From Escherichia coli (GTDB lineage: Bacteria; Pseudomonadota; Gammaproteobacteria; Enterobacterales; Enterobacteriaceae), in the NCBI RefSeq assembly GCF_003334305.1, contig NZ_QOWS01000019.1: 64,000 nucleotides of DNA; one strand, given 5' to 3'. The position numbers were made by a program. Below are positions 45,001-57,000 of the stretch, one piece after another (within the stretch, counting starts at the first letter, position 1; each line of letters starts with the position of its first letter).

Positions 45001-48000
45001 AATAAAGTTAATTTCGAAACACTAAAATTCATAATGCAAACAGGGACGCACCGCTAGCAGCGCCCCTAGCGGTATCCTATAAAAAAACACACCGCGCCGC
45101 TAGCAGCCCCCCCTAATATAAAATAATGTTTTTTATAAAAATAGTCAGTACCACCCCTACAAAACGGTGTCGGCGCGTTGTTGTAGCCGCGCCGACACCG
45201 CTTTTTTAAATATCATAAAGAGAGTAAGAGAAACTAATTTTTCATAACACTCTATTTATAAAGAAAAATCAGCAAAAACTTGTTTTTGCGTGGGGTGTGG
45301 TGCTTTTGGTGGTGAGAACCACCAACCTGTTGAGCCTTTTTGTGGAGTGAGTTAAATTATTTACGGATAAAGTCACCAGAGGTGGAAAAATGAAAAAATG
45401 GATGTTAGCCATCTGCCTGATGTTTATAAATGAGATCTGTCTGGCCACTGATTGCTTTGATCTTGCAGGCAGGGATTACAAAATAGATCCTGATTTACTG
45501 AGAGCAATATCATGGCAAGAATCCCGTTACCGGGTTAATGCCATCGGTATTAATCCGGTAACGGGATATGGCAGCGGACTGATGCAGGTAGATTCCCAGC
45601 ATTTTAACGAACTGGCCCGCTACGGAATTAAGCCGGAACATATGACAACAGATCCCTGCATGAACATTTATACCGGTGCTTATTATCTGGCAATAGCATT
45701 TAAAAAATGGGGCGTCACCTGGGAGGCCGTTGGTGCATACAATGCCGGATTCAGGAAAACCGAACGCCAGAACCAGAGGCGTCTTGCCTACGCATCAGAT
45801 GTTTACCGGATTTATACCGGGATAAAAAGCAGTAAAGGTATCCGGGTTCCGACCACGAAGAAATCACTTTCCCAAATGAACAGTGTGCAGAACAATTAAT
45901 ATTGTATACATTGTCAAATACCGGTTATGCCGCGACAGCGGCATGGAAGGCCACACACAAAAATATCATATGAGTGATAATGCTGACTGGCCGAAGCCCC
46001 GCAAAGCGGGAACCCATATTATATATATCCGGTAACTGCGTAGCCTCCTGCCAGACCATTTTTCGCGGGCACAATATTTACAGACTACCGAAAAGCCAGT
46101 TGATGAAATTGAGGCATATCAGACGACATAGCAATGCCGAAGGATGACAATATAAGTAAAGCCCCGAAAATTTTTCGGGGCTTTACCTATATTATCACGA
46201 CTTCCACTCCCTGAACTGTTCGGCAATCATCCATAATGCTTTGTTGATTCTTATATCACCATCAATACCTGTAATGGCTCTTGTCCTGGTATTTTTCCCG
46301 GAGGCACTTCGCCCCGATAATCCACCTTTTATCATATTCTCCTGAACCCGCTGCCAGGTTGTCCAGAGATCGTTCTGTTTATCCTCCCGACGACGGGGAG
46401 TAATTATCTGTTCAGGCGTCACCGGCGTTTTATTTTCATCTTCATACCTGACCATCAGTGCAGCTCTGCCAAATAAATGTTGCTCGTCACTGTTAAGATG
46501 AATTTCTTTCATCGCCTCCATATTATCAGTGACCTTATCAAAGACACCGAGCACTTCATACGCTCCCTCGATAACCTGCCCGACAATATCACCTTTATGT
46601 GGAACGCGGATTTCGCCAAAATTATTTCCGCACACCAGGCCATTTGTGCAGACAAAACGAAAAATTCCGGGGATCATCTGATAACTGGATGAACCATCAT
46701 GTGAATTAAGCAGGATAATTTCAGGAACTTCCTGCCCGTTAATATGCCCTTCCCTGCGAAGACGTAACATATGTTTACTGTATTCGCGACGTCCCAAATC
46801 ACGAACCCGACTCTGACAGGCAAAGAATGGCTGGAAACCTTCATCACGTAACTTATTGATGATATTGATTGTTGGAATATACGTATAACGTTCACTCCGG
46901 GACTCATGTTTATCACCGGAAAACACCGAAGGCACAAACTGCATTAATTCATCATCCGTTAAAGGACGTTCACGGCGGATGGAATTATACCGACCAAAAC
47001 GGGAAGCTAATCGCATAACAGCTACTCCTTTATGAAAGAATAAATTTAATAAAAAATTTTTCCGCTTAATATCATCCCTCCCGATCTCCATTAACAAGAT
47101 TGCAACAATCAGGAGGGATATTCATCACATCCGGTCAGCAGATAGCCCGGATATCGAGGCCGGTACGCTTAATCTGACGCAGGAACTGTTTGAAGTGATC
47201 GGCTTCCGCAATGTTGATATGGCGGAACTGCGTATCCACACCCCGGCTGAGCGCATAGCTATAGCTGAAGGCCATCTTTTCCGGGTGGCTTTTGCGATAT
47301 TTTTTCAGCTCAGTCAGGCTGCTGAATTCCAGGACGTCCCACTCTTCCCCGGTGTATTTTTTCTTCCCGGCAACAAGAAGCGTGTACGACGCGATGTTAA
47401 CGTGGATATTTCGGGTACTCATCCTGCTTTCTCCTCTCTCTGGTTTTCAGCCCCCATCATCTGTTGAGTTTCGGGAGCCGCGGTTTTGACGTTTTGCGGG
47501 GACCTGCCGTTTGTTCCCTCCGGTATTCACCATCACCTGTTTGAGAACCTTCGCCGCAAGGGGCATCACTGCCACGGCCTGACGCACCTGTCCTGGGCAG
47601 AACGCAAAATTTTTTACCGGGTTTTGGGTAAAAAATTTTGTGGGCTGTTCATTTACCCTGGACAGTCAGTGCGGCAGGTTGTGGCTGTATCAGCTCCCGG
47701 CGACAGGGGCTTAAACAGGTGAATGGCACCGGACACAACAACGGGCAGGAACCCGCCGCAACGACGTGAAGCGCGGTTTGCGAAACGGCGTTGCCCCTTA
47801 CATCCCGGCGGCCTTTTGCCGGGATGCCGGGAGCGCAGGCCACGGCGCGACAGAGGCGGCGCGACCGGAACGGTCGCTGCAAGCCCGGGGTTTCGCGTCA
47901 GGGATGGAAGCCCGCCAGGGCGGAGACAGCTCCGCTGGCTCCGTTCACGACAGCCCGCCCCGCCAGGGGGACGCCCGGAAAAGGCATAAGCAGGAGAACA

Positions 48001-54000: not shown

Positions 54001-57000
54001 GTGCCGGCAGAGGGTTCCAGAATGTGATCACGGTTGCTGATCCCCGCCAGCGTCACCAGGCGATCACAGACCGGGGCAGGAGTCACAAAAAGCTGAGATT
54101 CAGCCCGGATTTCAGCAACCGGCGCGGCGTTATCCAGCCTTGCGCGCATCAGCCGGATACGTTCTCTTAACTGACTGTACATGTCATTATCTCCGTCATC
54201 CCCCGGGGATTTTCCCGGGAGGATATACCTTATTTCTGTGGGATTTCCGTAATCTTCATGTCGGTGATATACACATTCACCAGGCGGAAATTATTGTCCA
54301 TTGTGCGGCGGTAACGATATGCCCCGTGGTCTTCTGCCTCTGCCACACTGCGCACGGCCTTACAGTCCCGGGGCAGGGCAGCCCACTGTGCCTTTGTCAT
54401 TTCCCGGAAACCTTCTCCCGGATAGTTGACAACAGGCGGACGCTTAGCGGCCTGACTGGCGACGGCAGCCTCTTCTGCCGATGGTGCTTTGTAGTCCGTA
54501 ATGCGATCGGGCGTCACTTTCATCGTGCCACTGTACCCGAGAAAACTGTAATTCGGCGTTGTGACTGAACTCACCGTCCCGTTGCTTTTGTTCACGCGGA
54601 TGATGGTCAGCCACTCGCCCCGGCTGAAAACCTGTCCGCCCGGCTCAAAATCCTGTGTCCGGGTAACCACGCCGCCGCTTTCGTCCAGCATGGCACGCTC
54701 ATAGATCAGGCGGTTCTGATAGTGGTTAACCCAGCGTTGCTGATGCTGAATCTGCCGTTTATGACAGCGGATCGCAATTTCGCGGGCCTGCTCCGTGGTG
54801 ATGATGTCATCATCCAGGGCCGACCATAACGATCGACTTCCTTCATACTGGCTTTTTTCTGCCGGGCGCGGATACGTATCCAGCGGGAAACAGGCACTGA
54901 TACGGTCATGACTACTGATGAGTTTTGCCATATTCAGATCCAGCGATTCAGCCCGCCATATCGTCAGATATTTCTGCGACTGCGCGATGGTCTTTTCAGC
55001 CTTGCGCAAATCAGCTTCGATTTTTTTGATACGACGCCAGCGAACGTCCGGACGTTCTTTATACTTCGCGTGAAGCAGTGCCGACCGCGCCCGCTCTTCC
55101 CAGTATTCCGCACGTTCAACGAGCATCACGGCACGTTTCATGCCGTTTTCAATACGCTGCGCATCACGACGGGCGCGGCGTTCGCTGTGATGCCCCACAA
55201 GAATGGGCTGACCGGGCGGGATCATCGCGGCCAGTCTTTCCACTTCATCAAGTGCCTGTGCGGATTCACTGGCCCGCTTTCCGCTGTATCCGGTAAACCG
55301 CTCCGCCCGTGCTTCCTGACGTTCAGCGAGCGTGCTGTCTTCATCCTCAATCTCTCCGGCAAGTGAGAGGAGCACGTCTTCCCGGCCCGGTGTCCAGGCT
55401 GGAGCCACAAACAGCGCCTGTTTTGGTGCCCAGCGAAAACCGGCATCATGCACTTTTTTATACGTCTCCGGGTCAAGACGTGACGCAGCATACAGGCGCA
55501 GTTTGTTGTCATCCGGTGAGTAGGTCGCGCGGTACATCTGCACAGGGCTGGCGGCTTCTGGGGCGGTCATGGTGATTGCTGCTAATGTCATAAAATGTTC
55601 TCCTTCCGTCTGTTGCCGCCCCTCGCGGGGCGGCTCACCTCATCAGTTAAAAGCGCGTTTCAGTTCAAGTGTGCGGAGCACCTGCCCGAAAGCCGTGTTT
55701 TTCATGGCGGGGATGTGTACACCACGTCCCCGGTGAAAACTCCGGGCTATGTGTCGCCCGAATGCTTTCAGCACGGGGTCAATTTCCGGCGCGGGGATGT
55801 CTTCGCGTCTGAAACGGGGATGACGGCGGGGCTTTACAGCCGCTGCGGAAGGTGAAACAATACTTACTGTCATAAATGAAACTCCTTATGACACAGGTTA
55901 GTGAAGCCGTGAAAATCGATTGCGGCGATTTCTACGGCGTGGATTAAGCAGGTCCCTGACCTGCTTTTTTCATATCTGCATCTGACGCTTTCCGGTGTTT
56001 TCCTCCTTCTGTTCCTGCGTTCTCATTACCTGCCAGCCGGATGACTGACAGAACAAATAAATGCGTATTGCCGGAGCCTGAAATAAATCCTGATTTTTAA
56101 AGAACATCACCCGTTGAGTTTCGGGAGCCGCGGTTTTGACGTTTCGCGGGAACCTGCTGCTGTATTCCCTGTGGTATGAACTTCACCCGTTTGAGAACCT
56201 TCGCCGCAAGGGGCATCACTGCCACGGCCTGACGCACCTGTCCTGGGCAGAACGCAAAATTTTTTACCGGGTTCTGGGTAAAAAATTTTGTGGGCTGTTC
56301 ATTTACCCTGGACAGTCAGTGCGGCAGGTTGTGGCTGTCTCAGCCCCCGGCGACAGGGACTCATACGGGTGTGTGGCACTTGGCAGGCAATGAGCAGGGA
56401 CCCGCCGCAACGACGTGAAGCGCGGTTTGCGAAACGGCGTTGCTCCTTACATTCCGGCGCCTTTTGCCGGGATGCCGGGAGCGCAGGCCACGGCGCGACA
56501 GAGGCGGCGCGACCGGAACGGTCGCTGCAAGCCATGGTTTCGCGTCAGGGATGGAAGCCCGCCAGGGCGGAGACAGCTCCGCTGGCTCCGTTCACGACAG
56601 CCCGCCCCGCCAGGGGGACGCCCGGAAAAGCCATAAACAGGAGAGGAACGGAAAGAAGAGGAAGAGGAAAAAGAAGAAGAACAATAACAAACACGGTAAC
56701 CACAGAAAAATAACATCAGAAAAAACATTCCGGACACATCACTAACGGGAAGGGTAACGGGCGACGCGTCAGCGTGGCCCGCTTCCCTTCCGGCAGGCGT
56801 CAGCCTGCCAGGGGGGTTCGCGCGGGCTGACAGGCGGCCTCCACCGCCTGCCCTGTATCACCTGTTTCAGCTGCCCTGAAGGATATAGTGACCACCGAGG
56901 AAAACCGCCTGCTGATTCGTCACAAAATCGCAGATTTCATCAACAATCTGCGCGGTGGTGAGCGGTTTCTGCCCCATCTCACGACGCCGCGCATTAATCA

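Follow-up and report, generated by a model that had tools for sequence, protein, structure and literature searches.

The stretch of DNA analysed here, 64,000 nucleotides (nt) of contig NZ_QOWS01000019.1 from Escherichia coli (assembly GCF_003334305.1; hereafter the window), carries the origin of transfer (oriT) of an IncF plasmid and the leading region beside it, in which three direct repeats on the plus strand each precede an operon on the minus strand. With a probability of roughly 92%, these repeats are class 1 single-stranded DNA (ssDNA) promoters of the IncF leading region, a group also referred to as Frpo, ssiD, ssi1-3 or 'ssp1'. The window is 100% identical to the IncF plasmid NZ_CP023363 (MOBF, MPF_F), in the annotation of which traM, traJ, traY and other tra genes lie on the minus strand to the left of oriT. 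To the right, again on the minus strand, are annotated an open reading frame (ORF) of 95 amino acids (aa), a DUF932 gene, hok, psiB, a ParB-like gene, a DUF905 gene, an S-adenosylmethionine (SAM) methyltransferase gene, a DUF3560 gene, a 76-aa ORF and an antirestriction gene. The nic motif is present as an exact match, and its GGGTGT^GG part is what we take to be the nic sequence of F. Its orientation and the tra genes to the left of oriT make the plus strand the transferred strand and place the leading region to the right; as the leading genes are on the minus strand, the transferred strand is their template. A preliminary description of this DNA had come to the same assignment of strand, nick and template.

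45293-45303, plus strand: oriT nic motif GGGTGT^GGTGC, nick at 45298/45299

Three repeats upstream of leading operons

The repeats were delimited by a repeat search and a three-way alignment, in which the copies are 88-92% alike with a mean column identity of 88%, and they sit 2.2-11 kb from nic on the leading side, with all downstream genes on the minus strand. The preliminary description had placed them at 47443-47986, 52833-53376 and 56113-56632, and the boundaries found here agree with these within about 15 nt. Beyond the repeat ends, a fainter likeness among the copies continues for about 100 nt more, into a purine-rich stretch.

47455-48000, plus strand: repeat copy 1, at the position of F Frpo1 (repeat search, alignment, nhmmer, ssiD match)
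52846-53388, plus strand: repeat copy 2, at the position of F Frpo2 (repeat search, alignment, nhmmer, ssiD match)
56105-56644, plus strand: repeat copy 3, not at an equivalent place in F (repeat search, alignment, nhmmer)

Mapping of ORFs bears out the 95-aa ORF, ssb and the 76-aa ORF as the first genes downstream, and the distance from the base of the hairpin described below to the first start codon is 46 nt for copy 1, 47 nt for copy 2 and 245 nt for copy 3.

47135-47422, minus strand: 95-aa ORF (F YgeA position), first gene after copy 1, followed by a DUF932 gene at about 46195-47016
52181-52812, minus strand: ssb (ATG at 52812), first gene after copy 2, followed by a DUF905 gene, a ParB-like gene, psiB and psiA
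55643-55873, minus strand: 76-aa ORF, first gene after copy 3, followed by a DUF3560 gene (54230-55591) and a class I SAM methyltransferase gene (53619-54182)

Identity to the ssiD/Frpo sequence of F (D90178, taken from Supplementary Table 2 of Samuel et al., PMC11541004) is 96.6% for copy 2 (351 nt), 87.6% for copy 1 and 79.7% for copy 3 (335-351 nt), and all three copies align with both F copies. Homologues were searched for with nhmmer and aligned with MAFFT; the copies in the window obtain nhmmer E-values of 1e-186 to 1e-200, and the same profile finds three copies in ColIb-P9. An Rfam scan of 44000-60000 (E<=1) returned no family over the repeats, its only matches in the vicinity being the traJ 5' untranslated region, FinP, sok and AS-pc01. 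The repeats, including their multi-copy arrangement, are already known, and the layout is the standard three-copy one of IncF plasmids: at least 13,817 repeat places were found in at least 5,000 PLSDB records, about three per plasmid, and 13,089 Frpo homologues have been counted in 6,006 elements (PMC11541004, Samuel et al.). Of the best 5,000 PLSDB records, 4,037 cover at least 80% of the sequence that joins copy 3 to the 76-aa ORF; this third copy, lacking from F at that place, is present in most IncF plasmids.

Plus-strand ORFs of 88-141 aa within the repeats were considered as coding sequences and rejected, as single-base indels between copies (alignment columns 412, 460 and 488) break their frames; one of them carries a hypothetical-protein annotation in NZ_CP023363.

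Structure of the hairpin

Folded as ssDNA with DNA parameters, the plus strand of each copy forms one long imperfect hairpin of 118-122 pairs. The preliminary description had spoken of a hairpin of about 540 bp, which proved too long: a profile of the repeats rematches each copy on the opposite strand at profile positions 14-332 (nhmmer), and the minimum free energy (MFE) folds agree that the inverted repeat spans 319 nt and not the whole 545 nt, leaving about 210 nt of each repeat outside it. Over the full repeat, the MFE of the ssDNA is -146 to -158 kcal/mol (z -5.6 to -9.3; 0 of 100 shuffles as good), and that of the 320-nt hairpin core is -92 to -100 kcal/mol.

47468-47786, plus strand: hairpin of copy 1, 319 nt, 122 pairs, apical loop at 47619-47626 (MFE fold and nhmmer opposite-strand self-match)
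52859-53177, plus strand: hairpin of copy 2, 319 nt, 118 pairs, with a G.G mismatch (G53002/G53027) in the apical stem
56118-56435, plus strand: hairpin of copy 3, 318 nt (ssDNA MFE fold)
47605-47640, plus strand: A/T-rich apical palindrome of copy 1, noted in the preliminary description
47648-47655, plus strand: conserved unpaired 8-nt bulge TTCATTTA in the 3' arm of copy 1 (folds, alignment and promoter scoring)

The anatomy is conserved across homologues. Starting from the apex, it consists of an A/T-rich stem of 14-16 bp, the bulge in the 3' arm, a conserved CCC(C)TGGAC block pairing with GTCC(N)GGG, a conserved internal loop of 4x4 nt about 45 bp below the apex, and then a long, more variable lower stem. 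The bulge measures 8-9 nt across lineages and reads TGCATCT, TATATCT or TGCATAT elsewhere, with a counterpart T(G/T/A)(C/T)AT(T/C/A)T in the IncI1, Kosakonia and Salmonella homologues.

Selection on pairing in the transferred strand

The apical palindromes that had been reported to differ between copies were found exactly at the places given for them.

47605-47618/47627-47640 (copy 1) and 56255-56268/56277-56290 (copy 3), plus strand: palindrome CAAAATTTTTTACC/GGTAAAAAATTTTG
52997-53010/53019-53032 (copy 2), plus strand: palindrome CAAAAGTTTTTGCC/GGCAAAAAGTTTTG

From these, the preliminary description had concluded that both arms changed together with pairing preserved. This is correct for A47616-T47629, which is replaced by a compensatory G-C pair, but not for T47610-A47635, which is replaced by the G.G mismatch G53002/G53027, both bases of which are left unpaired in the fold of copy 2. 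Pairing in copies 1 and 2 was judged from their own folds, since a column-wise comparison overstates broken pairs (there is a 1-nt alignment shift at the apex). An argument for selection built on these two positions thus fails, one of them being a mismatch, whereas the claim itself, that covariation shows the hairpin to be under selection, holds when a wider set of homologues is compared.

For this comparison, an alignment of 14 sequences was scored on the structure of copy 1, the controls being 3' partners slid by 1-3 columns and 500 shuffles. The homologue set includes the two F copies, a Salmonella pSLT-like copy (82% identical), the three ColIb-P9 copies, the Serratia, insect-metagenome and Salmonella candidates of Samuel et al., and copies from Citrobacter werkmanii, Citrobacter sp. 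FP75 and Kosakonia cowanii recovered by a genome scan. Each homologue folds on its own into a hairpin of 230-370 nt. Standard pairs fill 80.4% of the pair cells, compared with 41-48% in the slid controls, and 37 of 122 pairs are altered on both sides (16-26 in the slid controls), so that pairing is kept through double changes; the covariation score is 0.170, against 0.05-0.08 after sliding. At the first pair singled out in the preliminary description (47616/47629) the homologues have GC six times, AU three times and UA once; at the second (47610/47635), UA five times and non-pairs five times.

The pairing is also strand-specific. In all 20 homologues compared, the transferred strand gives the stabler fold of the two (mean difference from the complement -13.6 kcal/mol), because it carries more G.T wobbles, which become C.A mismatches in the complement. 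This points to the entering DNA strand as the target of selection, and not to the mRNA-sense RNA or the duplex.

The G.G mismatch at the centre of the apical stem (53002/53027) recurs in Salmonella, in ColIb-P9 (the copy upstream of a DUF4942 gene), in Kosakonia and in Salmonella Frpo*. As it is found in several lineages, it looks maintained rather than like a failed compensation, and it may be a selected promoter feature.

The genome scan that supplied the Citrobacter and Kosakonia copies covered 298 Gb of contigs with a 17-nt distal hairpin pattern, which is too short to be specific, so that most of its 120 loci are chance matches. The real loci are only those in Citrobacter werkmanii, Citrobacter sp. 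FP75, Kosakonia cowanii, one E. coli-like contig and two Streptomyces contigs. The latter two (6.5 kb and 332 bp, Streptomyces morookaense) hold fragments of Frpo repeats, for which assembly contamination is the most likely explanation.

Candidate promoter elements

A scan for the sigma-70 consensus on both strands of 47400-48150 gave no promoter-like site, a result that we count toward the reading as an ssDNA promoter. Within the hairpin there are conserved unpaired patches, namely the 8-nt bulge and the 4x4 internal loop, and the hexamer matches are weak. The bulge at 47648-47655 is a candidate -10 element. Three placements of a hexamer pair compete:

47625-47653, 3' arm: placement (a), TGGGTA/TGGGCA-N17-TTCATT/TGCATT, second hexamer within the bulge, weak score
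47541-47569, plus strand, 5' arm: placement (b), TTGAGA-N17-CATCAC, putative second hexamer over the conserved 4x4 loop, weak score
from 47486, base of the 5' arm: placement (c), TTGACG-N17/18-TTTGTT

Wherever a lineage has the A/T apex, the spacing of placement (a) is kept at 16-17 nt; placement (c) is missing from IncI1 copies that are known to work. The class 2 hairpin of F, which is unrelated, has its hexamers (TTGCAT-N15-TAAGAT) in the 3' arm, and 3 nt of the second one are mismatched. By analogy, the 3' arm would be favoured as the non-template strand, and hence placement (a) would be the preferred one.

Proposed mechanism and alternatives

The ssDNA promoter ssiD/Frpo of F was characterised in vitro in 1997 (Masai and Arai, as summarised in PMC9849209 and PMC7690428). 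According to these summaries, Frpo in single-stranded form adopts a stem-loop structure containing -35 and -10 boxes, to which sigma-70 RNA polymerase binds, and the RNA made also primes DNA synthesis. For the F and ColIb-P9 homologues, transcription is known to start on the single-stranded form, with stimulation by SSB, and not on the duplex (PMC9849209, PMC12672017, PMC7690428). Without Frpo1 or Frpo2, early production of downstream proteins in transconjugants is abolished, and conversion to duplex ends expression (PMC9849209, 2023). More recently, transcription starts of class 1 ssDNA promoters have been mapped by 5' rapid amplification of cDNA ends in pESBL (Wen et al. 2025, PMC12672017), and ssp1/Frpo transcripts have been found to prime conversion in vivo (bioRxiv 10.64898/2026.01.09.698686).

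In the proposed model, the plus strand would pass into the recipient with its 5' end, made by the nick at 45298/45299, in front, and each imperfect inverted repeat of about 319 nt would fold into a long hairpin in the entering strand. The stem would mimic duplex promoter DNA, with the conserved unpaired patches acting as a pre-melted region, and host sigma-70 RNA polymerase would start within the stem and read the transferred strand toward lower coordinates. It would thereby transcribe the operon just 5' of each hairpin, that is, the ygeA-like and DUF932 genes after copy 1, ssb-DUF905-parB-like-psiB-psiA after copy 2 and the 76-aa ORF-DUF3560-methyltransferase genes after copy 3, and the same transcripts could prime synthesis of the complementary strand. 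Copying to duplex would remove the hairpin and turn the promoter off, giving a short burst of expression of establishment and anti-defence genes. Homology, position, strand, orientation, hairpin, covariation and strand-specific stability were computed here, and recognition by the polymerase, dependence on ssDNA, shut-off and priming are expected from the literature on the F and IncI1 homologues.

Several points weigh against assigning the repeats to the class 1 promoters. Copy 3 lacks an experimentally studied counterpart at its place in F, and transcription from the copies of this plasmid is presumed by analogy with the homologues in F and IncI1. A canonical -35/-10 pair is not to be seen; consensus scores are weak at best and divided among the three placements. 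None of the 500 shuffles reaches the covariation score of 0.170, but relatedness among sequences can inflate such shuffle-based statistics, a problem from which the slid controls are free. Finally, the copies are mosaics: the apex of F Frpo1 is that of window copy 2, the apex of F Frpo2 is that of copies 1 and 3, and the lower stems group otherwise. As the central segment of the hairpin holds both arms, recombination between copies swaps both without any compensatory mutation, and some of the arm-to-arm co-variation between copies stems from such exchange of apical segments. The class 1 assignment, which agrees with the Frpo-type reading of the preliminary description, nevertheless draws together the homology to ssiD, the positions of F Frpo1 and Frpo2, the strand and orientation, and the structure, with transcription probably as in the homologues.

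It is improbable that the hairpins are mainly ssi signals, at which RNA polymerase would lay down a primer for the complementary strand and gene expression would be secondary. ssiD, the name under which the element was first isolated, denotes an initiation signal, and its RNA remains hybridised to DNA in a form that DNA polymerase III uses (PMC7690428, in its account of Masai and Arai 1997), and rifampicin abolishes early conversion events near psiA and ygeB in vivo, although conversion as such continues under rifampicin (both bioRxiv 10.64898/2026.01.09.698686). Priming is, however, an added role and not a true alternative to that of a promoter; deletion of Frpo1 or Frpo2 costs early downstream protein production (PMC9849209), and priming alone would not need each copy to lie 46-245 nt upstream of a correctly oriented operon.

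Still less probable is selection of the hairpin as RNA or as duplex, be it as an RNase III site, as a terminator or insulator between operons, or as a recombination hot spot. Any read-through RNA of a 319-nt inverted repeat would fold too, and the copies do recombine, as seen from apex segments that are mosaic between positions and plasmids and from a 9.7-kb deletion in pO111-CRL115 that has been explained by recombination between repeats (PMC3817090). Against this stand the poorer folding of the mRNA-sense sequence in all 20 homologues and the promoter function demonstrated by the published deletions (PMC9849209); moreover, no terminator-like T run follows the hairpins, and the two weak terminator-like matches in copy 1 are background, 1.1 being expected from shuffles. 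That the repeats are functionless remnants of mobile elements or a chance duplication is hardly credible: they are dispersed and contain internal inverted repeats, and in related plasmids group II introns and an insertion sequence (IS) have inserted into or beside such hairpins, but double changes keep their pairing, and in more than 5,000 plasmids, as well as in relatives from IncI1, Kosakonia and Citrobacter with identities down to about 65%, the element recurs at the same place and in the same orientation ahead of leading operons.

The distal module

The part of each repeat outside the hairpin is a G+C-rich module of about 210 nt, which is nearly invariant between the copies in the three-way alignment and conserved above the level of the hairpin. 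As a whole it folds barely better than shuffles (z -1.9), and it contains two small hairpins, H2 and H3. H3 is common to all lineages examined (IncF, IncI1, Kosakonia, Citrobacter and Salmonella) and has exactly three matches in the window, where 0.03 are expected; neither ssiD, which ends at about 47800, nor the ColIb ssi elements, whose limit corresponds to about 47855, extend as far as H3, and most of the module falls outside these published elements.

47790-48000, 53181-53388 and 56439-56644, plus strand: distal G+C-rich modules
47802-47825, plus strand: distal hairpin H2 of copy 1, with covarying counterparts in ColIb-P9 and Salmonella
47861-47877, 53251-53267 and 56509-56525, plus strand: distal hairpin H3, GCGACCG-GAA-CGGTCGC
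47898-48098, 53288-53467 and 56545-56703, minus strand: small ORF of 52-66 aa with a hydrophobic segment, ending within the module, common C-terminus FPGVPLAGRAVVNGASGAVSALAGFHP

The small ORF stays in frame in the F and Klebsiella copies, including through in-frame hexanucleotide expansions. Its start codons vary and a ribosome-binding site is not evident; elsewhere it is annotated as a hypothetical or putative transmembrane protein, and an NCBIfam search of the three ORFs gave no family.

No description of the module was found in the literature consulted on Frpo/ssi elements. We tentatively raise the idea, which we think more doubtful than probable, that it belongs to the class 1 unit as a functional part not described before, and is no passive flank, and that the apical G.G mismatch is likewise selected. 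Possible roles include recruitment or positioning of SSB or RNA polymerase by a structure in the incoming strand, and a priming or roadblock signal for complementary-strand synthesis; another possibility is that the module holds the 3' end of a gene for a small membrane peptide (47898-48098, minus strand).

A group II intron (ltrA) interrupts the repeat of related IncF plasmids at position ~440, some 16 nt past the GAA-loop hairpin, and in one plasmid two Frpo copies are hit (intron-bearing stretches L005 15439-17900 and 22858-25300, and L004 23732-26200). Its occurrence at two different Frpo copies of one plasmid suggests that introns target the distal module. Hexanucleotide tandem repeats that differ between lineages occupy one and the same place at the far end of the repeat (seen at L003, about 15560-15780, and at L055 and L086): Salmonella and C. 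werkmanii have (GGAACA)n, Citrobacter sp. FP75 has (CCACGC)n and Kosakonia has (CACCCG)n, and at this place the window copies have an imperfect purine-rich stretch (48000-48070).

Other features of the leading region

The ssb gene has a 1-nt deletion near its end (GATGATA-CCCGTTCTGA). The frameshifted product has an extension of 37 residues in place of the conserved C-terminal ...DDIPF tip, and the extension overlaps the DUF905 gene; the coding-sequence table of NZ_CP023363 in PLSDB is without an ssb entry. Between copy 3 and the start of the 76-aa ORF, a match to the AS-pc01 antisense RNA (RF02875, 105 bits, antisense to pHK01_035) lies on the plus strand at 55868-55969, a position that makes it antisense to the 5' end of the third leading operon.

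Farther into the leading region, the antirestriction (klcA/ardB-like) gene is preceded by the class 2 hairpin, which an insertion breaks at CCTT/GCAT, inside its -35-like TTGCAT. The insertion contains an IS110-family ISEc32 transposase gene and two minus-strand ORFs. On the far side of the insertion no hairpin is re-formed. The split junction is found in 334 of the best 5,000 PLSDB records.

57971-58165 and 60593-60620: the two parts of the class 2 hairpin
58166-60592: insertion of 2,427 bp between them

Comparison with known systems

Frpo-type promoters matter for the spread of conjugative resistance plasmids, as they control how genes for SOS inhibition, anti-restriction and other tasks of establishment are expressed within minutes of entry into a cell. 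The present instance adds no new principle, as the arrangement occurs in thousands of sequenced plasmids. What it adds is numerical support, from the comparison of homologues, for the view that pairing is selected, in the transferred strand in particular; a correction of the compensatory argument, in which one change is compensatory and the other a recurrent G.G mismatch; and a conserved distal module omitted by the published element boundaries.

The closest relatives are the elements Frpo (ssiD; Frpo1) and Frpo2 of F, which also go by ssp1a/ssp1b and share the hairpin of about 320 nt on the transferred strand, 80-97% identity and the same flanking distal module. Copy 1 occupies the place of Frpo1, upstream of ygeA/ygeB, and copy 2 that of Frpo2, upstream of ssb...psiA. 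In contrast to F, the window has a third copy, upstream of the 76-aa ORF-DUF3560-methyltransferase operon, and the apices are swapped, copy 1 having the Frpo2-type and copy 2 the Frpo1-type apex. Three dispersed copies per leading region are also found in the IncI1 plasmids ColIb-P9, R64 and pESBL (ssi1-3, or IncI1 'Frpo1-3'), and such an arrangement has been described for ColIb-P9 (ssi1-3) and for pO26-CRL125 (R1-R3) (PMC3817090). The IncI1 copies have in common with those of the window the A/T-rich apical stem, the 3'-arm bulge of 8-9 nt, the CCCTGGAC block, the 4x4 internal loop and the distal hairpin GCGACCGGAACGGTCGC, whereas stem similarity is only about 60-70%, the hairpins have an unrelated basal third and the copies reside on a MOBP/MPF_I plasmid. 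The class 2 promoter of F ('ssp2' or 'Frpo3', upstream of ardB/klcA) is likewise a long hairpin of the transferred strand upstream of a leading operon, but is not homologous in sequence to the three repeats (PMC12672017; nhmmer likewise gives no match). More distantly, the single-strand origins (sso) of rolling-circle plasmids and the complementary-strand origins of phages M13 and G4 are also folded ssDNA recognised by host RNA polymerase or primase (PMC7690428); unlike the repeats, they serve in priming only, are unrelated in sequence and drive no operons.

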